This document shows positions 7,936-47,392 of a stretch of 64,000 bases of DNA, one piece after another. The translations under genes and the position numbers were made by a program. Numbering within the stretch: the first letter of the stretch is position 1; every line of letters starts with the position of its first letter. The notes under the pieces were generated by a model that did no database searches, was not told where the DNA came from, and was given only the letters and a program-made list of their open reading frames with translations. This stretch comes from Thermoanaerobaculia bacterium (GTDB taxonomy: Bacteria; Acidobacteriota; Thermoanaerobaculia; Multivoradales; Multivoraceae), in the NCBI GenBank assembly GCA_965116445.1, contig OZ220688.1:1675789-1739788 (forward strand), read 5' to 3'.

Positions 7936-8775
7936 TCACCTGTGCCCCCGACGGCCCGCCATCGGGTCGAGGGCGCCGTGGCGACCGTTCCGGCCCAGGG
8001 GATACGACCCGCGAAGAGCCCTCTCGACGAAGGCGACGGCCCGCCGCACAGCCCGCTCGAGCGGCAGGTGCCAGCCGAGACCCGCCGCGATCGCCGCCGA
8101 CAGGGTGCAGCCCGTGCCGCGCCGCCACGGGGTCCGGATTCTGGGGTGGACGAAGGCCTCGAAGCGATTGCCGTCGAACAGAAGATCGGTCAGTTCGCCG
8201 CTAGCGCCACAACCAGCCGACCCCGCCGCGGCCGAGTAGCCGTGGCCCCCGGTGATCAGGACGCCAGGCCCCAGCCGCTCGATGCGCCGCGCGGCAGTCC
8301 GGGCATCGTCCGGACCTCCAATCGCCATGCCGCTCAACCTCTCCGCCTCGAACAGATTCGGTGTCACCAGCAGCAACCTGGGCAGCAGCCGCTCCACGAC
8401 GAGGGGCAGGGCCTCGGCTTCCAGGAGTGCCGCGCCCGAGGTCGACCGGAACACGGGATCGAAGACCGCCGGCGTCGGCGGCAACGCCTCCAGCCAATCC
8501 GCGACCGCCTCGACCGTCGCGGCATCGGTAAGCATGCCGATCTTGATCGCGTCGAGGCCGATCTCGGCGGCCGCCTCCAACTGGCGGCGCAGCAGTTCGG
8601 TGCTTACCGGTTCGACTGCCTTGACTTCGCCGGCGGTCTGGGCGGTCACCGCGGTCAGGGCGCACAGGCCGTGAACCCCGTAGGCCGCAAAGGTCCGCAG
8701 ATCGGCCGGTACTCCCGAGCAGCCCCCGGAGTCGGAGCCGGCGATCGTCAGGACGCGCGGCGGCGGCGTAGCCAT
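7936..8775 (-). CDS. thiD: Hydroxymethylpyrimidine/phosphomethylpyrimidine kinase
   Basis: VLTIAGSDSGGCSGVPADLRTFAAYGVHG and LLVTPNLFEAERL motifs of the ThiD / PfkB-like kinase family. Confidence 0.8.
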   Translation of the reverse strand: MATPPPRVLTIAGSDSGGCSGVPADLRTFAAYGVHGLCALTAVTAQTAGEVKAVEPVSTELLRRQLEAAAEIGLDAIKIGMLTDAATVEAVADWLEALPPTPAVFDPVFRSTSGAALLEAEALPLVVERLLPRLLLVTPNLFEAERLSGMAIGGPDDARTAARRIERLGPGVLITGGHGYSAAAGSAGCGASGELTDLLFDGNRFEAFVHPRIRTPWRRGTGCTLSAAIAAGLGWHLPLERAVRRAVAFVERALRGSYPLGRNGRHGALDPMAGRRGHR

Positions 8776-9548
8776 AGCAGAGCGACCAGAAGCAGAAGAG
8801 CGGCCGCGATCAACTGCGCCACGGTCAACGCTCCGATTAAGCGATCGTCCTTGGCGCGCACGAACTCCACCAGGAAGCGCTCAACCGACAGCAGTCCGAC
8901 AACCGGCAGCACGACGCCGCCGGGCGCTGCGCCCCGCGCCAGGAGCCTGCGGCCGAACCAGAAGATCAGCAGCGCCGCCGAAGTTTCGTAGATCTGGGTG
9001 GGATGCACCGCGACGAGCGCGTCCGCCGCCAGGTCGGCCGGGAGGTCGACGCCGAACTCGCGCTGCAAGGCGCCCGCCGTGGTCGGGATCGGCCCCTCGG
9101 GAAACGTCATGCCCCAGGGAAGGTCCGTGGGCGAGCCGTAGTCGTCGCCGACGAGCAGGCACCCGATGCGGCCGATGCCGTAGCCGAGAGCCAGAGCGGG
9201 CGCCGTGGCGTCGGCCGTTCGCCATGCCGGCATCCGGCGACGGTGCATGACGAACAGAACCGCCGCGGCGCCGACCAGGAAGCCGCCGTACCAGACCAGA
9301 CCGGCGCGGCTGTACAGCAGACGCCAGTCGCCGTAGAGCAACGCGTAGTACGCCTTGCCGCCGGCGATACCGCCGAGGGCCGCCGCCAGCAGAATGGCCG
9401 CCGCATCGTCCGCGGCCCGCGCGGCGCTCGTGCCCACCCGACGGAGGCCCCAGCGCAACTGCAGGTTGCCGGCGAACAGGGCGACGACCAGCATCACGCC
9501 GAAGGGCGAAACCGAGAGCGGACCGATGCGGAAGAGTTCCGAGATCAT
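8748..9548 (-). CDS. lgt: Prolipoprotein diacylglyceryl transferase
   Basis: Polytopic membrane protein with Lgt signature motifs GYGIGRIGCLLVGDDYG and HPTQIYE. Confidence 0.85.
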   Translation of the reverse strand: MISELFRIGPLSVSPFGVMLVVALFAGNLQLRWGLRRVGTSAARAADDAAAILLAAALGGIAGGKAYYALLYGDWRLLYSRAGLVWYGGFLVGAAAVLFVMHRRRMPAWRTADATAPALALGYGIGRIGCLLVGDDYGSPTDLPWGMTFPEGPIPTTAGALQREFGVDLPADLAADALVAVHPTQIYETSAALLIFWFGRRLLARGAAPGGVVLPVVGLLSVERFLVEFVRAKDDRLIGALTVAQLIAAALLLLVALLWLRRRRAS

Positions 9549-9906
9549 GAACCCGCATCCTACGCCGCCCCGGTCCAGGAGCCGGCGCTAGCATGATCGG
9601 GATGCTGAGCGAGCTGGCCCAGAAGCGCTTCGACGCCTTCCGCAGCCACATGGAGGCGCCGATCCACGGGGGCGCTGGCTCGTCCTGACCCACGACAATC
9701 CGGATCCCGACGCGCTCACCGCGGCAACGACTTCGAGACGCTACGCGAGGCCCTGGCGAATCTTCGCGGAGTCGACACGTTGATCATGAGCCGGCTCGGC
9801 ACCGTGCCCCAACCCGACATCGTGCCCGAGATCGCCGATCTGCTGCTGCGAATGGAGGGGCGCTCTTGAGCCGGGTGCAGCCCAGGAGCGGCCCCTCCGG
9901 CCGTCC

Positions 9907-11487
9907 TCACTCCCACTCGATCGTGCCGGGCGGCTTGCTCGTCAGGTCATAGACCACGCGGTTGACGCCGGTGACCTCGTTCACGATCCGCCCCGCCACG
10001 GCGCCCAGGAACTCGTGCGGCAACTGGCTCCAGTCGGCGGTCATGAAGTCCTCCGTCTCGACCGCCCGCAGGGCGACGACGTTCTCGTAGCTACGGCCGT
10101 CCCCCATCACGCCCACGCTGTGGACCGGCAGGAGGACGGCGAGCGCCTGACTCACACGGTCATAGAACCCCGCGGCGCGCAACTCCTCGATGAAGATCGC
10201 GTCGGCTTCCTGCAGCACGGCCACCCGATCGGCCGTCACGTCGCCCAGGATCCGCACGCCGAGGCCGGGCCCCGGGAAAGGATGCCGGCCCAGGAACTCG
10301 GCGCCGAGACCGAGTTCCCGGCCGAGCTGGCGCACTTCGTCCTTGAACAGGTAGCGCAGCGGCTCGATCAGTTCGAAGCCCAGCCGCTCCGGCAGGCCGC
10401 CGACATTGTGGTGGCTCTTGATCATCGCGGACGGGCCGAAGGCGGAGACCGACTCGATCACGTCCGGATAGAGGGTGCCCTGGACCAGAAAGCGAAACGC
10501 GCCGTTCCCTTCGCCGGCACGCTCCAGCCTCGCCGCCTCGCGCTGAAACACCTCGATGAAGACGCGGCCGATCGTCCGTCGCTTCTCTTCGGGGTCGGAC
10601 ACCCCGGCGAGCGCGCCGAGGAACTCCTCGGCGGCGTCGACGACGACGAGCTTCAGGTCGAGCCCCTGGCGCAGGCTCCGCTCCACCTCGTCGCGTTCGT
10701 TCTTGCGCAGCAGCCCGTTGTCCACGAACACGGCGGTCAGGCGCTCCCCCACGGCACGCTGCACCAGGCTGGCCGCGACCGCTGAATCGACCCCGCCGGA
10801 GAGAGCGCAGAGAACTCGGTCGGAGCGACCGGCCTGGGCCTTGATCGCAGCCGTCGCCTCGTCGGCGTAGGAGGCCATGCGCCACTCTCCCGCGGCGCCG
10901 CAGGCGTCGTAGAGGAAGTTGCGAAGCATCGTCGAGCCGCTGTCCGTATGCGTGACTTCGGGATGAAACTGGATGCCGAAGAGGGACCGTTCGCCGTCCT
11001 CGGCAGCCACCACCGGCACCGTCGACGTCGACGCCGTCGCCTCGAACCCGGGCGGCAGTTGTTCCACCCGGTCGCCATGCGACATCCACACGTTCTGCTC
11101 CGGCTCCAGCCCGTTGAACAGATCGCCGTCCCTGGCCAGCAGCGTGATCCGGGCGCGACCGTACTCCCGCAGGCCCGATGCCGCGACCCGACCTCCGAGG
11201 ACCTGCGCCATCCACTGCATGCCGTAGCAGATCCCGAGCACCGGAATGCCCAGCCGGAGAACCTCCGGATCGGCCTGCGGCGCGTTCTGCTCGTAGACGC
11301 TGTCCGGGCCGCCCGAGAGGACGATGCCGATCGGCCGGCGGGCCCCGATCTCCTCGACGTCCAGGTCGAAGGGATGGATCTCGCAGTAGACCTGGAGTTC
11401 CCGGATCCGCCGGGCGATCAACTGCGTGTACTGGCCCCCGAAATCGAGCACCAGGACCGTCTCGTGCTCGCCTCTCCCCGCCGTCAC
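9907..11487 (-). CDS. guaA: GMP synthase (glutamine-hydrolysing)
   Basis: GATase1 domain (VLVLDFGGQYTQLIARRIRE, CYGMQ) plus an ATP-PPase domain (SGGVDSAV). GTG start at 11487 overlaps the gpsA stop (GTGA). Confidence 0.9.
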   Translation of the reverse strand: MTAGRGEHETVLVLDFGGQYTQLIARRIRELQVYCEIHPFDLDVEEIGARRPIGIVLSGGPDSVYEQNAPQADPEVLRLGIPVLGICYGMQWMAQVLGGRVAASGLREYGRARITLLARDGDLFNGLEPEQNVWMSHGDRVEQLPPGFEATASTSTVPVVAAEDGERSLFGIQFHPEVTHTDSGSTMLRNFLYDACGAAGEWRMASYADEATAAIKAQAGRSDRVLCALSGGVDSAVAASLVQRAVGERLTAVFVDNGLLRKNERDEVERSLRQGLDLKLVVVDAAEEFLGALAGVSDPEEKRRTIGRVFIEVFQREAARLERAGEGNGAFRFLVQGTLYPDVIESVSAFGPSAMIKSHHNVGGLPERLGFELIEPLRYLFKDEVRQLGRELGLGAEFLGRHPFPGPGLGVRILGDVTADRVAVLQEADAIFIEELRAAGFYDRVSQALAVLLPVHSVGVMGDGRSYENVVALRAVETEDFMTADWSQLPHEFLGAVAGRIVNEVTGVNRVVYDLTSKPPGTIEWE

Positions 11488-38351: not shown

Positions 38352-39836
<1,485 letters not shown>

Positions 39837-39849
39837 AGACGGAGGACGC

Positions 39850-39857
39850 TTAGCAAT
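39850..39857. repeat. Target-site duplication, left copy (TTAGCAAT)
   Basis: An 8-bp direct repeat identical to 43289..43296; it abuts the left terminal inverted repeat. Confidence 0.7.
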
Positions 39858-39891
39858 GGGGATTATATACGAGAGTGCCGAAGCCGAACGG

Positions 39892-40089
39892 CTACCGGCG
39901 CACGCTCTTCGGTGACTTGACGTAGTTGACCTTCACCTCTCCGGCCAGCGCATCGGCGAGCACGTCAAAGCTGGCGTTGATCCGCAGGTCTTCCCGCAAC
40001 TCCGCTGCGGACGGCTGGTAGCTGGGGTGAACGATGTCTACGACAGGGCGTGTCGGCCGCTTGTCTCTCTCTACTTGCTTTCTAGCCAC
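39892..40089 (-). CDS. Small hypothetical protein (65 aa) overlapping the 3' end of the methyltransferase-HNH gene
   Basis: ORF MARKQVERDKRPTRPVVDIVHPSYQPSAAELREDLRINASFDVLADALAGEVKVNYV; no recognisable motif. Lies inside the element next to IRL. Confidence 0.3.
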   Translation of the reverse strand: MARKQVERDKRPTRPVVDIVHPSYQPSAAELREDLRINASFDVLADALAGEVKVNYVKSPKSVRR

Positions 40090-41333
40090 GCTAGCTTCTC
40101 CCTCAGTTCCGAGATCATGTTTGCCTTGGCGATGCTGTCTTCACTGGTGCCCTTCGTGAGGTTGCACGGACGGCAGAGCAGTTGAAGATTGTCGGGTTCG
40201 TCTCCGCCACCTTCGGCTTGCGGCACGATGTGGTCAACGTCCATCAGCCGAATATCCGTGAGCGTGGAGCACATCGCGCACCGGCCTTCTTGCTCGCCGA
40301 AGAGCAGGTGCTTGTGGCTGGTCGGCTTCGGCGGCGCTTGCGACTCCGTGACGCTCTCTGTGGTCCAATACTGGATGTCGTGAAGTACGGTGCCCATGAA
40401 CGAGACTTCGTTCGTCAGCCGCTCCCTCACGAGCTTGTAGGCCATGTCCGATATGTCCATGCCGATCCACTGGCGGTTCAGTCTCTCCGCTGCTACACAG
40501 GCGGTCGCGCAGCCACAGAAGGGGTCTAGCACGATGTCGCCCTCGTTCGAGGATGCCCGGATGATCCGTTCCAAGAGCGCTAGCGGCTTCTGGGTCGGAT
40601 AGCCAACGTTCTCGGCAGCCTGCGAGTTCAGGAAGTTGATATCGAACACGTCTGTATGTCGGTTGCCCTGGGTCGTGTCCACAGGTTTCACGATGTCGAA
40701 GTCGTTGCGGTCGATCTTCCCGTCGGCTTCCTTGCGGGCAAGAACCGCCTCGTCGTAGATGTACAGGTAGCGCTGGCCACCCATCCGCTTCGTGTTGTAC
40801 CCCGCTCGGACGAGTTGCTGTTTCCGTGGCGACAACTCGGAATCGTAGGTCGCGTGGTAGTGGAACTTCGTAGAGCGCGAGTAGAACAGGAGCGTGTCGT
40901 GCGCCCGCAGGAACTTCTTGGCCCGCGAGTTCGCCACTTTCTTGTACGACCACACGATCTCGTTGCGGAACTGAATCCGGCCGAAGATCACGTCCATCAG
41001 CGTCTTGAGGTAATGGCTGGCGGTCGGATCGCAGTGGAGGTACACGCTCGCCGTGGGCTTCATCACGCGCCGCAGTTCGAGCAGCCGCACCGCCATGTAG
41101 ATCAGGTACGCCTTCATGCCCTTGGAGTGCGCGGTGCCGGCCGCGTCGATGGTCTGGTACAGCGCCGGGTGATGCTCCGCGAGTTCGCCGTGCCACGCGA
41201 GGTCTACGTCGTCCAGCGTCCAAGTGTCCTTGAACGCCGCGCCCGCAGCCTTGCTGCCTATCGGAGCGGCGAAGTTCCGGTCCTTGTTGAACGGCGGATC
41301 GAGGTAGACGAGATCTACGCATCCGTCCGCCAT
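40071..41333 (-). CDS. DNA methyltransferase (N6-adenine/N4-cytosine, beta-class) fused to a C-terminal HNH endonuclease domain; the annotated ATG is internal. The conserved N-terminus continues upstream through the repeat tract.
   Basis: DPPF (motif IV) at the N-terminus and VLDPFCGCATACVAA (motif I, FxGxG). C-terminal HNH motif CAMC...DVDHIVPQAEGGGDEPDNLQLLCRPCN. The in-frame sequence 5' of ATG 41333 encodes ...YGPQDWVRAIHTGDNLNILRG, the conserved MTase N-terminal segment. Confidence 0.75.
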   Translation of the reverse strand: MADGCVDLVYLDPPFNKDRNFAAPIGSKAAGAAFKDTWTLDDVDLAWHGELAEHHPALYQTIDAAGTAHSKGMKAYLIYMAVRLLELRRVMKPTASVYLHCDPTASHYLKTLMDVIFGRIQFRNEIVWSYKKVANSRAKKFLRAHDTLLFYSRSTKFHYHATYDSELSPRKQQLVRAGYNTKRMGGQRYLYIYDEAVLARKEADGKIDRNDFDIVKPVDTTQGNRHTDVFDINFLNSQAAENVGYPTQKPLALLERIIRASSNEGDIVLDPFCGCATACVAAERLNRQWIGMDISDMAYKLVRERLTNEVSFMGTVLHDIQYWTTESVTESQAPPKPTSHKHLLFGEQEGRCAMCSTLTDIRLMDVDHIVPQAEGGGDEPDNLQLLCRPCNLTKGTSEDSIAKANMISELREKLAWLESK

Positions 41334-41488
41334 CCCGCGCAGGATATTGAGGTTGTCGCCGGTGTGGATCGCCCGAACCCAATCCTGCGGTCCGTATCTT
41401 GCAGGTGTAATTCCGCCCCCGGCCCCCGGCCCCCGGCCCCCGGCCCCCGGCCCCCGGCCCCCGGCCCCCGGCCCCCGGCCCCCGTCAT
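41315..41488 (-). other. Repeat-containing leader ORF (58 codons, MTGAGGRGPGAGGRGPGAGGRGPGAELHLQ...), out of frame with the methyltransferase
   Basis: ATG 41488..41486 overlaps the transposase TGA (ATGA), with GAGG upstream. It reads through the heptamer tract and stops at 41315, in a different frame (+2) from the MTase. Confidence 0.4.
41414..41483. repeat. Heptanucleotide simple-sequence repeat: (GGCCCCC)x9 perfect (41421..41483) plus one imperfect unit (41414..41420); (GGGGGCC)n on the coding strand
   Basis: Directly visible in the sequence. The 63-bp perfect tract is open in all three frames as Gly/Arg/Pro/Ala. Confidence 0.9.
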
Positions 41489-42519
41489 GCCGTCGCCTCG
41501 CGCGCGCCTGACGCCAAGCCGTTGTCGGCGATCAGGTCGCGGTAGCGGAGGCGCTTGCCCTCCATGTCTTCGGCGAAGCGGTCCAGTTGCTCCGCAGTGT
41601 CGAACTCGCGGACGTTCTGCCGCCAGCCGAACTCGTCCACATACCGCTGCAACTGCTTCGGGCTGAGCTTGTGGAACGTCCCCTTGTGCGCCCGCTTGAG
41701 CATCGACCACAGGGACTCTATGCCGTTCGTGTGGATCCTGCCGTCAACGTACTCGCCGACCGAGTGCTTGACCGTGCCCCGCTCGTAGTCCGTCAGGCCC
41801 CCGTAGGCGCCGGCGTCGTCCGTGTAGACGGTGGAGCCGGGTTCGACGTGCTCGCGGACGAAGGACTGTAGCGTCTCGCCGTCCGTGGAGTGAACGACCT
41901 TGGCGGCTACCTGCTTGGTCTTCCGGTCCTTGACGCCGACGACGGCGGTCTTGCCAGCCGTGCCTCGTCCGGTGAGCTGCTTGCGCTTCTTGGCGTGCAT
42001 GTTCTTCCGCTTCCCGCCGAAGTACGTCTCGTCCGCTTCTACCGGGCCGGGGAACAGGACGGTCGGCCCGTTTGCCTCAAACGCGGCGCGGAGACGCTGC
42101 GCCATGAACCACGCGGTCTTCTGGGTAACGCCCAGGTCGCGGTGCAGCTTCATGCTCGACACACTCTTGAGGCTGGTCGTGAGCAGGAACGTGGCGAGCA
42201 TCCATTTCTGGAAGCCGATCTTCGAGCCTTCCATGACGGTGCCGGTCTTCGCGCTGAACCGCTGGTAGCAGCCCTTCTCGCGGCAGCGGAACGGCATCGT
42301 CTTGTGCTTCGCGCCGGTCTGGACGTTGTGCGATCCACAGGCCGGGCAGGTCGGCCCGTCGGGCCAGCGCCGCTTGACGTACCACGCCTCGGCTGCCGCG
42401 TCGTCCGGGAACATCCGCATCACCTCTACCAGAGTGATGCCCTCCCGGTGCGCCTTGCCCGGTGCCTTGTGCATCGTCGCCATGCACAGAACCTTACAGG
42501 AGAGTGCCGGTGAAGTCAA
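41485..42519 (-). CDS. IS1595 family transposase
   Basis: MHKAPGKAHREGITLVEVMRMFPDDAAAEAWYVKRRWPDGPTCPACGSHNV is the N-terminal zinc-ribbon/HTH typical of IS1595/ISXO2-like transposases, followed by a DDE-type core. The start may be the ATG at 42483. Confidence 0.8.
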   Translation of the reverse strand: MTSPALSCKVLCMATMHKAPGKAHREGITLVEVMRMFPDDAAAEAWYVKRRWPDGPTCPACGSHNVQTGAKHKTMPFRCREKGCYQRFSAKTGTVMEGSKIGFQKWMLATFLLTTSLKSVSSMKLHRDLGVTQKTAWFMAQRLRAAFEANGPTVLFPGPVEADETYFGGKRKNMHAKKRKQLTGRGTAGKTAVVGVKDRKTKQVAAKVVHSTDGETLQSFVREHVEPGSTVYTDDAGAYGGLTDYERGTVKHSVGEYVDGRIHTNGIESLWSMLKRAHKGTFHKLSPKQLQRYVDEFGWRQNVREFDTAEQLDRFAEDMEGKRLRYRDLIADNGLASGAREATA

Positions 42520-42597
42520 GCGACCCAGGGTGGCCGCGAGTACAATGGCTACGAATCGGGGGTCGAGACAGCCCCCACGACAAGGGAGACAAGAAGA

Positions 42598-42887
42598 TGA
42601 CTGAACCGCTGAACGGAGAGCCGCGAAAGTCAGGCACTCAGCCCGGCAACAAGGAGCCTCTGCCGAGACTCAAATCCTCAGTTCGGATCGCCGTCACCTA
42701 CTTCGCGGCTGGCTACCTGTTCGGAGGAAGTCTGTGGTTGGTCTACCTCGAACATACCGGCACAGTCGAGACCGCCACAAAGGATCTGTTCCTCTACACC
42801 GCACCTGTCGCTACGGGTATCCTCACCTACTGGTTCGGGACACGGACTGCGCAGAAGAGCCACGAGCAGGAAGGCGGGAACGGTTAG
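42598..42887 (+). CDS. Small hypothetical membrane protein (2 TM) carried by the element
   Basis: MTEPLNGEPRKSG... with two hydrophobic helices (IAVTYFAAGYLFGGSLWLVYL; LFLYTAPVATGILTYWFG). Low GC. Confidence 0.35.
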
Positions 42888-42953
42888 TACGCCACCGCCA
42901 ATCATGACGGCTGACCCGATCTCATCCACCCAGTCACGTTTCGCGGGCATCGC

Positions 42954-43157
42954 TCACCGCCGCTCCGCTGCCCTGGCCGGTTCCTTGTCGTGTAGGAACC
43001 CCGGCTCGAAGCGCTGGCGTTCCTGCATCAGGTCTTCGAGGTCTTGTTCGATCTCGTCGAGGACGTGCAGCGCTCGGCGCCGGTCGTGTCGGGCTTCGGC
43101 GATCTCCTGGTCCAGCGCGTGCTGGCGTTCACGGTCTCGGCTTCTCAAGCGTCGCAT
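42954..43157 (-). CDS. Small hypothetical charged/coiled protein (67 aa) carried by the element
   Basis: ORF MRRLRSRDRERQHALDQEIAEARHDRRRALHVLDEIEQDLEDLMQERQRFEPGF; vaguely DUF465-like. Weak evidence. Confidence 0.25.
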   Translation of the reverse strand: MRRLRSRDRERQHALDQEIAEARHDRRRALHVLDEIEQDLEDLMQERQRFEPGFLHDKEPARAAERR

Positions 43158-43288
43158 CGGGGATTCTCCCAGAGGTTGTGGTTCTAGCCGTCAATCATAC
43201 CACCGCTTGTAGAGTCAGGTGGGAAGTAGCACGTCCCGCAAAGAGTTGTCTAGCCCTGTTAGGTTCGGCACTCTCGTATATAATCCCC

Positions 43289-43296
43289 TTAGCAAT
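43289..43296. repeat. Target-site duplication, right copy (TTAGCAAT); its last two bases plus the following G form the ATG of the downstream gene
   Basis: Identical to 39850..39857. Confidence 0.7.
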
Positions 43297-44626
43297 GTCC
43301 AACCCTGGCACCCGGACGCAAGCACCGGAAACAGAGCGGGCCTACATCGTGCAACGCGAAGACAATCGAATCTTCTTCACGGAGCGCGTCGATCCCAAGG
43401 CACACGGGCAGTTCATGTGGTGTCTGCACGACTGCCTCGAGAAGGGCTACGAGGACGTCTTTCTGGACCTGTCGCAATGTGAAGCGGCATTTCCGAACGG
43501 TGTGCTGCCGCTGATCGCCAGCATCGACAACCTTCGGCGCGAACACAAGGAGGTGTCGGTGACCCTTCCTGCAAGCGAGTACATTCAACGGCTTTTCCTC
43601 AACACGAATTGGGCCCACCTCCTGGAGCCCGATCGCTATGCGCCAAGCGAAACGTCCCACCCACGTCACGTTCCGGCGAGACGGTTCAACACTGCCGAAC
43701 ACCAACACCGGCTTGTCGGAAAGACACTCAACGTCCTCTTGGGCGGGCTCCCGTCCCTCCAGCGAGACGACCTCTCTGCTCTCGAGTGGTCCATCAACGA
43801 AATCACCGACAACGTTCTGACTCACGCCGACTGCGACCTCGGCGGGATCCTGCAGGTCAGCACTTTCGAGAATGCCGGCAAGGTGGCCGTGGGCGTCACG
43901 GACTCAGGCCGTGGCATCCGCGAATCCCTCCGGGAGAGCCACCGGGAACTGACGGACGACGCCGACGCGATCTACAAGGCTCTCGAGGCGGGCGTTACCC
44001 GGCATTCCGATATCGGCCAAGGCAATGGTATGGCCGGCGCGCTCCGGATCGCCATGATGTCGGGCGGCTCAATCGAGATCACGTCTGGTCGAGCCCAGGT
44101 CAGTTACCGGGACGGGCGGTCGACCACCTTCAGGCGCAGCCGGCGGCAGACCTTCCACGGCACCTTCGTCTACTTCGACATCGATCTAGCCACCCGCTTC
44201 GACCTCTCCGAGGCCCTCGACTTCGGAGGCGGACCTCACCGCCCAGTAGACATAGTGGAGGCACTCTACGAAACAGACGACGGAAGAGCCCTCGCCCTTC
44301 ACCTTCGGGACGAGGAGGTAGGATTCGGGTCCCGAATGGCCGGAAGACAGATACGTACCAAGGCTCTGAACCTGCTGGCCGCAGAGCCGCACAAGCCTCT
44401 TCTCCTGGACTGGGACGGCGTGCCCCTGGTCTCAAGCAGTTTCGCCGACGAGCTTGTCGGCAAACTGTTCGCAACACTCGGCCCACTTACCTTCAGTCTT
44501 CGAGTGCGGAACACCGGAATGCGTCCCGTCGTCCACGGGTTGATCGACAAGGCCATCATGCAACGCGCGGGCCAAACGCTCGCCCGAGCCCGGGAGGAGA
44601 GCGATGCCCCATCCAAGAGTGACTGA
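43295..44626 (+). CDS. GHKL/HATPase_c-family ATP-binding protein with STAS-like flanking domains (C-terminal DUF4325-like)
   Basis: N-box EITDNVLTHA, G1 VTDSGRGI and G2 GQGNGMAGALR motifs of Bergerat-fold ATPases (RsbW/SpoIIAB-like). C-terminal LLLDWDGVPLVSSSFADELVGKL resembles STAS/DUF4325. Lower GC than the flanks. Confidence 0.6.
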   Translation: MSNPGTRTQAPETERAYIVQREDNRIFFTERVDPKAHGQFMWCLHDCLEKGYEDVFLDLSQCEAAFPNGVLPLIASIDNLRREHKEVSVTLPASEYIQRLFLNTNWAHLLEPDRYAPSETSHPRHVPARRFNTAEHQHRLVGKTLNVLLGGLPSLQRDDLSALEWSINEITDNVLTHADCDLGGILQVSTFENAGKVAVGVTDSGRGIRESLRESHRELTDDADAIYKALEAGVTRHSDIGQGNGMAGALRIAMMSGGSIEITSGRAQVSYRDGRSTTFRRSRRQTFHGTFVYFDIDLATRFDLSEALDFGGGPHRPVDIVEALYETDDGRALALHLRDEEVGFGSRMAGRQIRTKALNLLAAEPHKPLLLDWDGVPLVSSSFADELVGKLFATLGPLTFSLRVRNTGMRPVVHGLIDKAIMQRAGQTLARAREESDAPSKSD

Positions 44627-44742
44627 GCAAGGCTGTCCGTAGACGCTTCCTCAACGCTTATGCTGAACGAGAACGATGTGATTCAGGCCTCCGCCTGCTC
44701 CTTGAGGAACAAGGTTGGAAGATCCTCCGGTGTGCTGACACG

Positions 44743-45615
44743 TCACAACGAGGCCCTGACATCGAAGCGGAGAGTGTCTCGTCGGGAGTCCGCTTGGTGG
44801 TCGAAGCCAAGGGAGCAACCACCTCGAGTGAAGCTGGCCGTCGTAACAAAGACACCCTTAGTGGTTCCGGCCGCATCGATTGCGCCTCCGAAGTTGCGCA
44901 GGTCAGACCCGCCCACCGACTTCCCTTCGGCAAACTTCTTGGCTTGGACATACACCGCGTCCAGCCCCAGAGCGTCTTCACGAATCTTGCCGTCGATGCC
45001 GCCGTCGCCCGAGCCCCCGGTAACCTCACCACGGTCCGGGTTTCCGCCTCCATAGCCCAAGGCGATCAGGAGGTCCACGACTACGCGCTCGAAGAAGGCC
45101 GGGTCCTCCTGACGGAGCCGATCGAGGATCTCCACCTCGAGCGCTCCGCTCAACTCAGCCACAGCCGCCTCGAGTCTCTCCTCGGGCGGCTCCTCCACTG
45201 GGGAACGAGTCCCTGCTGCGGCCTCATCGCCGCCGTCGTCTGTCGGGACCGTTGCCTTGGCTCCTCGCCGCGAACTCTGAGCCTTCCAGTCCTTGTACTG
45301 CTGGTCCGCGTTGAGAAAGACAACGTCAACCCGTGAGCCGGCAACCAGGATTCCTCGCCCCTTCTCCGTCAGGCCGTGGTAGCCGCGGCGACTGCCAGCT
45401 ACGAGTCCCGCTCCCTTGAGGTGAGACAGGCTCCAGCTCAGGCGATTGTGGAAGACGGGCTGCCGTCCATTGGCCATCATGACGCTTCGGTCCTTCGTGC
45501 TCAGGCCAGTCGCCGCGGCGACCCGCTCCCGGATCTTGGCCAAGGGAAGTTCCTCGCAGTCAACCAGCGACTCCAGTACCGGCTGCATCAAGTTCGAGTA
45601 ATCCGGAACGGTCAT
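44743..45615 (-). CDS. mrr: Mrr-like Type IV restriction endonuclease (Mrr_N wHTH + Mrr_cat PD-(D/E)xK), possibly C-terminally shortened
   Basis: N-terminus: QPVLESL...GLSTKD...PVFHNRLSWSLSHLKGAGL. Catalytic core: GGSGDGGIDGKIREDALGLDAVYVQAKKF...KGVFVTTASFT, very close to E. coli Mrr. The ORF ends about 20 aa earlier than typical Mrr proteins. Confidence 0.75.
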   Translation of the reverse strand: MTVPDYSNLMQPVLESLVDCEELPLAKIRERVAAATGLSTKDRSVMMANGRQPVFHNRLSWSLSHLKGAGLVAGSRRGYHGLTEKGRGILVAGSRVDVVFLNADQQYKDWKAQSSRRGAKATVPTDDGGDEAAAGTRSPVEEPPEERLEAAVAELSGALEVEILDRLRQEDPAFFERVVVDLLIALGYGGGNPDRGEVTGGSGDGGIDGKIREDALGLDAVYVQAKKFAEGKSVGGSDLRNFGGAIDAAGTTKGVFVTTASFTRGGCSLGFDHQADSRRDTLRFDVRASL

Positions 45616-45671
45616 GGAGTCCTCCGCGAAACCGGGGCAAGCTCACACCTGCGCCGGCGAATCTCGGCACT

Positions 45672-46724
45672 CTACTCCCGCCGCCGCGCCGCCAGCCACT
45701 CCTCCGTCGCCTCCCTGGCCGGGGCCTCCAGCCACGGCAACACACCGAGGTTCCCCTCGCGGGCGGCGGCTTCGATGTCGACGTCGCCGCCGTCGAGGAA
45801 GCGGGCGGCGCGGTAGTAGGCGTCGCCGCCGGTCATAGCGGCGTCGCCGAGTTCGATCAGGTGGCCGGCGAGTTCCCGGGCGCGGCGAAGCCGTGGCGGC
45901 AGCGGGCGGGCGGGCAGAGGTCGCGGCAGACGGTGTTCGAGGCCCGCGGCGGCGGCGGCGGTCCGGAACGCCTCCGTGTCCGGGGGCGAATCGTCGCCGT
46001 GAAACAGCGCGTCGAAGGCCTCCGGCCACGTCGACTGCAGGCGCTCGGCGAGCAGGCGGCGGCTACGGGCGTCCAGGTCAAGAGTCCGCGGAACGACGCG
46101 ACGCGCCCCCGTTGCGGCGAGGCGGGCCATCGCCGGACGGAGGATCGCAGGCTGATCGGTCCAACCGACCACGAGCGGCCAGACAAGGGTCGCGAGCCGG
46201 GCGGGGGCGGTCTCGAATGGCAGGCCGTGCTGGCGACGCTCCCCGGGTTCCTCCAGCAGGACAAGGGCCTGGCGCAGCACGCAGTCCAGCAGGTCGACCG
46301 CGACGACGGCGTTCGCGGGAAGCCAGTCGGCGGCCGCGGCAGGGCCCCGCAGGAACCGCAAACCGCAGGTGGACGCGGTCAGGACGTCCTCCGCCACGAC
46401 CTGGACCACAAGGGGCGCACCGACGGCAGCCGCGGCCCGGACGATCCGTTCGCGAAGCGGCCCGTAGTCCGCCGCCAGGGGCGGAACGTAGACGACGTCG
46501 GTCACCGTCCGCACGCTCAAGGCGGCCTTCTCGGGGTCGAGCAGCGGCCCGGCCGGCGGCGACGACGACAGGCCGCCTGTTGCGAGGTCGCACCAGAGTT
46601 CGTCGCTGTCGCCGGTGGGCCAACAAGAGAAACTGTGACGGATCCAGAGATTTGCCGGCTCAGGGATCTGCTCCCGGAGGCTGACTGGGTTCACGGAGCG
46701 GTTCCAGTTCGAGAGGGCCGTCAA
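45672..46724 (-). CDS. Hypothetical protein (350 aa) with no recognised motif, co-oriented and overlapping the ribE stop
   Basis: Long ORF with an ATGA overlap to ribE, which suggests co-transcription. Ala/Leu/Arg-rich with no motif I can assign. Confidence 0.4.
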   Translation of the reverse strand: MTALSNWNRSVNPVSLREQIPEPANLWIRHSFSCWPTGDSDELWCDLATGGLSSSPPAGPLLDPEKAALSVRTVTDVVYVPPLAADYGPLRERIVRAAAAVGAPLVVQVVAEDVLTASTCGLRFLRGPAAAADWLPANAVVAVDLLDCVLRQALVLLEEPGERRQHGLPFETAPARLATLVWPLVVGWTDQPAILRPAMARLAATGARRVVPRTLDLDARSRRLLAERLQSTWPEAFDALFHGDDSPPDTEAFRTAAAAAGLEHRLPRPLPARPLPPRLRRARELAGHLIELGDAAMTGGDAYYRAARFLDGGDVDIEAAAREGNLGVLPWLEAPAREATEEWLAARRRE

Positions 46725-47392
46725 CGCTTGTTCGAGCCAAGCGCGGCCGCGACCGCGGCCTCGACGGACTTCCGGACGTACCTGGCCAGGACGTCGCCCT
46801 CGACGTTCACGCGGTCTCCGGGCCTGAGCTCCGAGAGGGTCGTCACCTCGAGCGTGTGGGGAATGAGGGCCACATCGAAGGTCTCTTCATCCAGCGCGGC
46901 GATCGTCAGACTGACGCCGTCGATCGTCACACTGCCCTTCTCGACCATCCCCGACGCCAGTTCCCGTGGCGCCTCGAACGTGATGACCCGGTTCTCCCCC
47001 AGCGCCTCGACCTTCGCCACCCGGGTCGTCGTGTCGACGTGTCCCTGCACCCAGTGACCGCCAAGAGGGTCGCCGGCGGCCAGCGGCGGCTCCAGGTTGA
47101 CCCGGTCGCCGGCAGCAAGTGCGCCCAGCGTCGTTCGGCTCAGGGTTTCCGGAGACAGGTCGAAGGCCGACCAGGCCGGAAACGCGCTCTCCGCGCCGGT
47201 ACCTGAAATGCCGCTCGTACCGCCCTGCGTCACCACGGTCAGGCAAACGCCGGCAACCGAGAGGCTGGCGCCCGAACCGAGTCGCGACCCGAGCTCGTCC
47301 GAGTGCCCGACCACCACGCGGGCACCGTGGCTTCGCGAAGCTCCGGGGCCCTCGACTACCCGGCCACGCTCTTGGACAATCCCGGTAAACAT
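46721..47392 (-). CDS. ribE: Riboflavin synthase (alpha chain)
   Basis: MFTGIV N-terminus and two lumazine-binding repeats (GDRVNLE...). Confidence 0.85.
   Translation of the reverse strand: MFTGIVQERGRVVEGPGASRSHGARVVVGHSDELGSRLGSGASLSVAGVCLTVVTQGGTSGISGTGAESAFPAWSAFDLSPETLSRTTLGALAAGDRVNLEPPLAAGDPLGGHWVQGHVDTTTRVAKVEALGENRVITFEAPRELASGMVEKGSVTIDGVSLTIAALDEETFDVALIPHTLEVTTLSELRPGDRVNVEGDVLARYVRKSVEAAVAAALGSNKR

Follow-up and report, generated by a model that had tools for sequence, protein, structure and literature searches.

A solo gene behind lysS in a Thermoanaerobaculia genome encodes an anti-sigma-type serine kinase fused to what is probably its own STAS-like substrate domain

A 64,000-nucleotide stretch of a Thermoanaerobaculia genome (assembly GCA_965116445.1, contig OZ220688.1, positions 1,675,789 to 1,739,788; referred to here as the window, whose numbering is used throughout) contains an intact open reading frame (ORF) of 443 amino acids (43295-44626, forward strand) lying next to a gene for an Mrr-type restriction endonuclease. 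The product of this ORF, which we call the kinase-STAS gene, has the appearance of a single-chain VapK-VapS-like fusion and is probably an anti-sigma-type serine kinase joined to its own STAS-like substrate domain. It had been predicted earlier that the kinase-like protein and Mrr constitute a sensor-effector pair. The kinase-STAS gene is instead a solo gene, horizontally scattered, that is found now and then inside restriction-modification (R-M) or other defense islands.

The ATG start of the kinase-STAS gene is backed by alignment with 34 homologues, and the ENA gene calls match both this ORF and that of the 290-residue Mrr. Pfam recognizes HATPase_c (E-value 5.7e-6) and DUF4325, a STAS-like domain (4.3e-6), in the 443-residue protein, together with a weak match to HATPase_c_2; NCBIfam has a model for neither this protein nor Mrr. 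A structure predicted with AlphaFold2 from a 35-sequence alignment (predicted local distance difference test score, pLDDT, of 80.4) contains an alpha/beta segment at residues 19-131 (pLDDT ~95), a GHKL fold at residues ~134-300, and a second small alpha/beta segment at residues ~330-436. Three domains can be delimited, all encoded on the forward strand: an N-terminal STAS domain (residues ~19-135; 43349-43699), a SpoIIAB/RsbW-type GHKL serine kinase domain (residues ~136-305; 43700-44209), and a C-terminal STAS-like DUF4325 domain (residues ~326-436; 44270-44602), with a flexible linker of low model confidence (residues 309-323) between the last two. The original prediction had described a GHKL core with STAS-like flanks, which Pfam and the structural model bear out, and the motifs that it listed (NEITDNVLTHA, TDSGRGI, GQGNGMAG, VFLDLSQCEAAFPNGVLPLIASIDNL and LLLDWDGVPLVSSSFADELVGKL) are all present in the sequence. 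The top structural matches are SpoIIAB, RsbW, the RsbW domain of Rv1364c and UsfX; a Foldseek search of the PDB contributed nothing further but generic GHKL proteins. No homology between the N- and C-terminal domains is detected by hhalign (probability 3%), and the N-domain profile searched against PDB sequences returns only a chance match to TIM9.

Residue invariance was counted over 35 sequences sharing 44-77% identity. The family-invariant residues of the kinase domain are E169, D172 and N173 in the N-box, D203, G205 and G207 in the G1 box, and Q242-G243-N244-G245 and G248 in the G2 box. The window protein retains all 63 of the family-invariant positions, from which we conclude that its coding sequence is without decay. 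The N-terminal STAS domain has 'FPNG' at the site where antagonists have 'DSSG'; the C-terminal domain contains an invariant run of three serines, S380-S381-S382 (44432-44440, forward strand). Past its STAS-like core the C-terminal domain has one helix and then a tail of variable sequence, and in the 35-sequence alignment conservation stops near residue 428, with tails that differ. Pfam finds no helix-turn-helix (HTH) or winged HTH (wHTH) family in the protein, whose N-terminal STAS domain begins near residue 19.

Two systems built on kinase-substrate pairs that DNA damage activates, CapK/CapS (CapKS) and VapK/VapS/VapC (VapKSC), were reported in 2026; they turn on immune operons or a toxin (Chambers et al., EMBO J 2026, PMC13373217). 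In that description VapK (STAS-GHKL) is modelled to phosphorylate S48 of VapS (STAS plus a C-terminal helix), which in the model frees the PIN toxin VapC; VapKSC protects against a phage, and the VapK and CapK kinases are activated by single-stranded DNA (ssDNA) (PMC13373217). The sequences of VapK (302 amino acids) and VapS (116 amino acids) were taken from the AlphaFold files of that paper and compared with our family. Using hhalign, the family aligns with VapK at a probability of 89% (E-value 2.3e-6) over 237 columns, pairing window residues 45-300 with VapK residues 35-292; this match covers both STAS and GHKL and is thus more than SpoIIAB or RsbW alone could give. With VapS the alignment pairs window residues 364-435 with VapS residues 31-97 (E-value 0.0038), and HMMER and hhalign alike place the VapS phospho-acceptor S48 at S381, G56 at G389, and D39 at D372. 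S58 and G66 of SpoIIAA are, we presume, in the same register as S381 and G389.

Several observations weigh against this interpretation of the protein and of its role. The link between the C-terminal domain and VapS is weak on its own at the sequence level (E-values 0.004-0.11; hhalign probability 8.7%) and leans on the Pfam DUF4325 assignment and the conserved serine register; a search of PDB sequences with the C-domain profile gave one weak match, to the Escherichia VapS (9z7o, E-value 0.11). No aromatic residue is in exact register with F54 of VapK, the residue that stacks on ssDNA, the phenylalanine of the window protein being two residues off. Autophosphorylation, ssDNA sensing and a role in defense are all extrapolated from relatives of ~20% identity. 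Furthermore, housekeeping genes (G6PD/OpcA, pyruvate kinase, GST) adjoin the gene at many homologous loci, which makes a non-defense regulatory role equally possible.

We propose that a signal read at the STAS/GHKL interface would turn the kinase on; by analogy with CapK and VapK, and more weakly inferred, the signal may be ssDNA from DNA damage or infection. The kinase would then phosphorylate S381 of its own C-terminal domain, either in cis or across a dimer, and phosphorylation would alter binding by that domain, whose output partner is not encoded next door. Self-phosphorylation of the tethered STAS-like domain at S381 is probable by analogy with Rv1364c, in which kinase and STAS are fused, and with the separate pairs VapK/VapS and CapK/CapS. 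A split version of the module is present in the Alicyclobacillus plasmid NC_013207 (79-1748 of the locus), where a 297-residue kinase adjoins a 102-residue DUF4325 protein (DUF4325 E-value 3.7e-15), and the occurrence of fused and split forms supports a kinase-substrate relationship. A small gene with a sigma-70 region-4-like HTH precedes the split module and insertion sequence (IS) elements follow it.

Homologues were sought in one genome per species, which yielded 218 loci; the best 80 were kept with flanks of 10 kb on either side and derive from Acidobacteriota, Gammaproteobacteria, Bacteroidota, Actinomycetota, Nitrospirota, Bacillota and other phyla. The family comprises 635 representative clusters (50% identity) at an E-value of 1e-30 or below and 1920 at 1e-10 or below. 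Members of the best 150 clusters are almost all 405-450 amino acids long, the shorter entries resembling fragments, and homologues in the annotated records that we retrieved are named only "DUF4325/STAS-like domain-containing protein". On plasmids and in viruses the family is rare, being represented in three plasmid records, two phage records and only 13 viral contigs out of 2.9 million; carriage by phages or plasmids was rejected because of this rarity.

The gene has no fixed neighbours. All-against-all BLASTP clustering of 5335 ORFs produced widespread clusters only of the gene itself and of antisense ORFs overlapping it. Among 116 immediate neighbours at 70 non-redundant loci, Pfam recognizes 150 families, none of them in more than 3 proteins, and clustering of the two genes on each side with phmmer gives no cluster spanning more than 3 loci. 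The 20 downstream genes that are co-directional with the kinase-STAS gene are heterogeneous, encoding an AAA_15/AAA_21 ATPase, a KAP NTPase, a cNMP-binding protein, OpcA, a MacB/FtsX permease, a GST, a thioesterase, a TrwC relaxase, a MORN-repeat protein and unknowns. Recurring nuclease families are absent from the immediate neighbours and from these downstream genes alike. Neither a sigma factor nor a PP2C phosphatase recurs in the neighbourhoods, and Pfam identifies neither in the low-GC islet of the window that holds the gene; the homologues are solo genes and are not members of sigma-factor operons either.

These neighbourhoods also bear on classical partner switching, in which the kinase would act as an anti-sigma factor for an unlinked sigma factor and the fused STAS domain would be its built-in antagonist, as in Rv1364c. 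This arrangement would agree with the best structural matches and with the sigma-70 region-4-like gene that precedes the split plasmid homologue, and Rv1364c offers an earlier example of a kinase and a STAS domain combined in a single polypeptide. We nevertheless regard it as unlikely, since sigma factor and phosphatase genes do not recur, since the STAS and GHKL domains align from one end to the other with VapK, whose target is a toxin-antitoxin pair and not a sigma factor, and since patchiness across phyla and atypical composition fit a mobile accessory gene.

The locus was compared with those of six related genomes (L001-L004, L011 and L022) from Thermoanaerobaculia, Ca. Multivorans, and one metagenome-assembled genome labelled as Vicinamibacteraceae. 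The lysyl-tRNA synthetase gene lysS (38352-39836, forward strand; assigned from Pfam tRNA_anti-codon and tRNA-synt_2 and from synteny) is 83-95% identical in nucleotide sequence to the window copy in the five relatives measured. In all six, the kinase-STAS gene starts 17-21 nucleotides past the lysS stop codon on the same strand, and a GGAG/AGGA-type motif is located 7-12 nucleotides before its ATG in all except L001. Downstream, four relatives (L001, L003, L004 and L022) have orf350 (45672-46724, reverse strand in the window; 57-68% amino acid identity, same position) followed by ribE (46721-47392). Pfam recognizes no domain in the orf350 product, and its only NCBIfam match, to radical SAM proteins of the Rv2578c family (8.6e-4), is weak and falls well short of the cutoff. 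Judged by this synteny, the kinase-STAS gene has long been established immediately behind lysS in this lineage.

Homology between the window and its relatives breaks off at ~44595-44599 and returns at 45675-45691, and the intervening 1.07-kb segment (44600-45675), which carries Mrr, is present in the window only; the syntenic relatives have no Mrr. The slot between the kinase-STAS gene and orf350, the backbone gene that bounds it, contains ~140 bp of non-coding sequence in L003, 2 bp in L004 (effectively empty), and ~300 bp in L001. A CoiA_N-like ORF (3.6e-6) and a HAD hydrolase gene occupy it in L022 (11421-12780), and in L002 (11661-16800) it has a gene for a DUF222 protein and ORFs that by eye resemble IS21- and IS4-family transposases. 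This slot is a local insertion hotspot. The orthologous kinase-STAS gene of L011 (~8240-9960) is itself broken by an insertion of ~1.2 kb with a transposase-like ORF, in which an IS256/mutator-type motif (…STNPIESLNS…) was identified by eye.

Over 43295-43740, the window protein's N-terminal STAS domain is 62% identical to that of its closest relative L001 (70% at the nucleotide level); the corresponding identity for the GHKL and C-terminal domains is 91-94%, and for lysS it is 95% in nucleotide sequence. The window N-domain is nearer to those of L002 and L003 (77-78%) than to that of L001, the mark of a mosaic gene, which suggests that the presumed sensor domain has either recombined or evolved fast.

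The Mrr gene (44743-45615, reverse strand) encodes a type IV restriction endonuclease of 290 amino acids, has a degenerate 3' end, and is tail-to-tail with the kinase-STAS gene across a 116-bp spacer. Pfam finds a winged-helix Mrr_N domain (8.5e-21) and a PD-(D/E)xK Mrr_cat domain (1.8e-21), and PADLOC assigns the product to mREase_IV, the type IV methyl-directed restriction endonucleases (6.5e-57). Its nearest homologues are 52-56% identical and 305-310 amino acids long, and they cover only ~91% of the query. Invariant residues of both domains are kept up to T263, including D204 and Q224-A-K226 of the D...QxK motif, and past FTR263 the sequence diverges: the 14-residue block GxELARLMVxHGIG is missing, and the stop codon follows VRASL, 17 residues early relative to the homologues. 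The Mrr_cat profile is correspondingly matched at positions 2-91 of 115 only, the full C-terminus (…IVLIDGxELARLMVxHGIGVR… and the tail) not being present, in agreement with the shortened Mrr that had been noticed in the original prediction. Beyond the stop codon a faint relic of the tail can be traced without a change of frame, and the other two frames have no Mrr-like sequence; a frameshift was therefore rejected as the cause of the truncation. With part of the PD-(D/E)xK core lost, the enzyme is probably inactive. The earlier suggestion of a decaying or silenced module thus applies to Mrr with its degenerate 3' end and does not apply to the ATPase gene with its full set of invariant residues.

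A BLASTP search with the window Mrr as query found no Mrr within 10 kb at any of the 80 loci, and an Mrr profile run over the same loci found the window copy only, plus a marginal match 7 kb away from the gene in L008 (E-value 7e-4). The two-gene defense module postulated earlier, in which the GHKL-STAS protein would be the sensor of a signal and would govern the Mrr beside it, draws on the convergence of the two genes 116 bp apart in a variable, low-GC islet, on the different nuclease-like gene that follows the kinase gene in L022 (CoiA_N), and on the location of some family members in R-M or defense islands. Convergent genes, however, cannot form an operon, the slot is empty in L003 and L004, the window Mrr is without part of its conserved core and its tail, and neither Mrr nor other nuclease families recur among the neighbours. 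We consider such a module extremely improbable. The genome comparisons indicate that the two genes adjoin by an accident of insertion and are not a functional pair, and the locus should accordingly not be catalogued as a new sensor-nuclease defense system.

The islet differs in base composition from its surroundings, with a GC content of ~0.59-0.65 across the 5.8-kb stretch ~39850-45650 against 0.69-0.75 in the flanks. For 42 backbone ORFs taken in the correct frame, GC is 0.683+-0.026 and GC at third codon positions (GC3) 0.839+-0.041; the values are 0.620 and 0.748 for the kinase-STAS gene and 0.637 and 0.735 for Mrr, both genes being low by ~2-2.5 standard deviations. The lower GC that had been attributed to both genes is thus real but moderate, and the difference from the backbone holds when quantified. 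In the six syntenic relatives the GC of the kinase-STAS gene is 0.60-0.63 versus 0.67-0.685 for lysS (GC3 0.68-0.78 versus 0.88-0.91). Because the gene is low in GC in all six, this is a property of the gene lineage and no sign of recent arrival here.

A transposon had also been predicted at the locus, and it proves to be an IS1595-family element with cargo (3431 bp; 39858-43288, reverse strand), recognized from its DDE_Tnp_IS1595 transposase, terminal inverted repeats and target site duplication. The 25-bp inverted repeats, GGGGATTATATACGAGAGTGCCGAA, are perfect (39858-39882 and 43264-43288; an exact search gives 2 matches where 0 are expected). The 8-bp target site duplication, TTAGCAAT, was read directly from the sequence at 39850-39857 and at 43289-43296, and the last two bases of the right copy are the A and T of the kinase-STAS ATG. 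Within the element are orf65 (39892-40089), a gene for an N6/N4 DNA methyltransferase-HNH fusion (40071-41333; Pfam N6_N4_Mtase 8.6e-46, HNH 1.8e-11), the IS1595 transposase gene (41485-42519; DDE_Tnp_IS1595 3.5e-43), orf96 (42597-42887, forward strand) and orf67 (42954-43157). No copies of the element were found in plasmids.

In the window the distance from lysS to the kinase-STAS ATG is 3.46 kb. The native Shine-Dalgarno sequence of the gene, GGAGGA, has been left behind at 39841-39846 (forward strand); when the element is removed in silico the sequence reads TAG-AGACGGAGGACGCTTAGCA-ATG, with GGAGGA 9 nucleotides before the start as in the orthologues. Insertion at the ATG is therefore the cause of the loss of the Shine-Dalgarno sequence that had been observed previously. 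The perfect inverted repeats and target site duplication indicate that the insertion is probably recent, in which case the intact kinase-STAS ORF says nothing about its present expression. The right inverted repeat (43270-43297) holds TATATAAT, which ends 11 nucleotides before the kinase-STAS ATG and was not called in a consensus promoter scan; its TATAAT could, on sequence grounds, serve as an outward -10 element giving rise to a nearly leaderless transcript. That scan, of 42400-45800, found no sigma-70-like promoter and one terminator-like site at chance level, and no RNA families were identified in 39700-45800.

It is conceivable, if on balance doubtful, that both genes are dead relics in this genome, the kinase silenced by the transposon, Mrr inactivated, and the locus without present function. 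The transposon does part the ATG from its Shine-Dalgarno sequence and from lysS, the promoter scan was negative, and the Mrr core is truncated. The kinase ORF on the other hand is intact with all of its invariant residues (the insertion may be too recent for decay to show), and the TATAAT of the right inverted repeat might drive its transcription.

A mobile DNA methyltransferase gene (40071-41333) and a degenerate gene for the methyl-dependent Mrr (44743-45615) thus lie 3.4 kb apart. Mrr enzymes restrict DNA methylated by foreign methyltransferases, as established for E. coli Mrr, and a methyltransferase arriving on a transposon would therefore, speculatively, favour loss of Mrr. The history of the locus thus begins with a resident kinase-STAS gene behind lysS, into which a probably recent IS1595-family transposon carrying a methyltransferase-HNH gene inserted exactly at the start codon, so that the gene lost contact with its Shine-Dalgarno sequence and with transcription from lysS; separately, a 1.07-kb segment with an already degenerate Mrr fills the variable slot downstream.

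Some family members are associated with defense genes. In a locus found separately (L085; 167-8122), member P0112 is inside a type I R-M operon with the order hsdR, kinase-STAS, hsdM, orf, HNH, hsdS. Two same-class relatives of ~70% identity (L005 and L021; 11620-18670) have, 325 bp downstream of them, a type III-like methyltransferase gene (PADLOC E=0), which is followed by a gene for a Dsr2-like protein (2.8e-133), in a defense island unlike the context in the window. A further member (L007) is between genes for a DinG-like helicase and a PD-T4-6-like kinase. A general association with type I R-M systems was rejected, as hsdM or hsdS is within 10 kb at only 4 of the 80 loci.

Such contexts recall CapK and CapS, which adjoin many different immune operons, frequently right behind R-M systems (PMC13373217), and the kinase-STAS protein could by the same token be a CapKS-like transcriptional controller of whichever operon adjoins it. 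We think this very unlikely despite the members in or beside R-M, Dsr2 or kinase-type defense genes: the protein has no Pfam-recognizable HTH or wHTH, only a single helix and a variable tail past the STAS-like core, and the neighbours are equally often housekeeping genes.

The only PADLOC match of the kinase-STAS protein is to a model of DrmA (PDLC02567, a DISARM helicase variant), in which positions 138-396 of 1750 pair with window residues 161-428 (E-value 3.6e-36). This region comprises GHKL and DUF4325, indicating that the kinase-STAS module is also an N-terminal appendage of a DISARM-type helicase. Membership of the window protein in a DISARM system, where DrmA has a superfamily-2 helicase core and the partners DrmB and DrmC, was rejected: the match is to the accessory region only, the 443-residue protein is without a helicase, and there is no DUF1998 or PLD partner nearby.

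A broader proposal, to which we attach a low likelihood, is that the solo fusion amounts by itself to a full sensor of stress or infection encoded by one gene. Its tethered STAS-like domain would gate the kinase as a pseudo-substrate; ssDNA or another infection cue would be read by the N-terminal STAS domain, which evolves fast, and would trigger phosphorylation of S381; and the freed kinase or STAS domain would act on unlinked host or phage targets. DISARM-type helicases would then have acquired the module as a regulatory head, it would also have been inserted in R-M operons, and in this lineage it would have been co-transcribed with lysS.

The kinase-STAS protein has resemblances to several characterized systems. 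It shares the SpoIIAB/RsbW-type GHKL serine kinase fold with its N, G1 and G2 boxes, but SpoIIAB-SpoIIAA and RsbW-RsbV are separate proteins encoded together with a sigma factor and a phosphatase, neither of which recurs near the kinase-STAS family. Rv1364c of M. tuberculosis (PAS-PP2C-RsbW-RsbV; PDB 3ke6), which we take to be linked to SigF regulation, differs from the window protein in having PAS and PP2C domains and no N-terminal STAS.

With CapK and CapS the shared logic is a STAS and GHKL kinase acting on a conserved serine of a STAS partner, and both also occur in R-M and defense contexts. CapK (STAS and GHKL with an N-terminal HTH) phosphorylates a conserved serine of CapS (STAS and wHTH), and adjacent immune operons are de-repressed (PMC13373217). 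The window protein has neither the HTH nor the wHTH, and there is no conserved downstream operon: CapK/CapS are directly upstream of an immune operon, whereas the gene downstream in the window is convergent and those downstream of the homologues are heterogeneous.

Of the known systems, VapK and VapS come nearest to the protein in the window. VapK, like the kinase portion in the window, consists of a non-phosphorylatable STAS followed by an anti-sigma-type GHKL domain, without an HTH; it has 'RPNA' at the site of 'FPNG', with the 'PN' at STAS helix 2 common to both and a phospho-acceptor in neither. VapS, like the C-terminal domain, is a small STAS-like protein of DUF4325 type with a conserved serine at the start of helix 2. 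The window protein differs in that kinase and substrate are one polypeptide, with identity of ~20%, and in that no PIN gene (VapC) is present among the flanking ORFs; PIN is found in 2 of 116 homologue neighbours. As conserved sequence in the family reaches only to about residue 428, with variable tails beyond it, the inhibitory C-terminal tail of VapS has no conserved equivalent and a DNA-binding domain is absent.

CapKS and VapKSC are thus already known (2026), and what is new here is the single-chain solo kinase-STAS form, an effector-less arrangement that is not mentioned in PMC13373217 and was not found in a full-text literature search of incomplete coverage. The family raises the question of what a switch controls when its output is not encoded beside it. 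In comparison with CapKS and VapKSC, it unites their two parts, kinase and substrate, in one protein of ~420-450 amino acids and lacks a toxin, a DNA-binding domain and any fixed neighbour.

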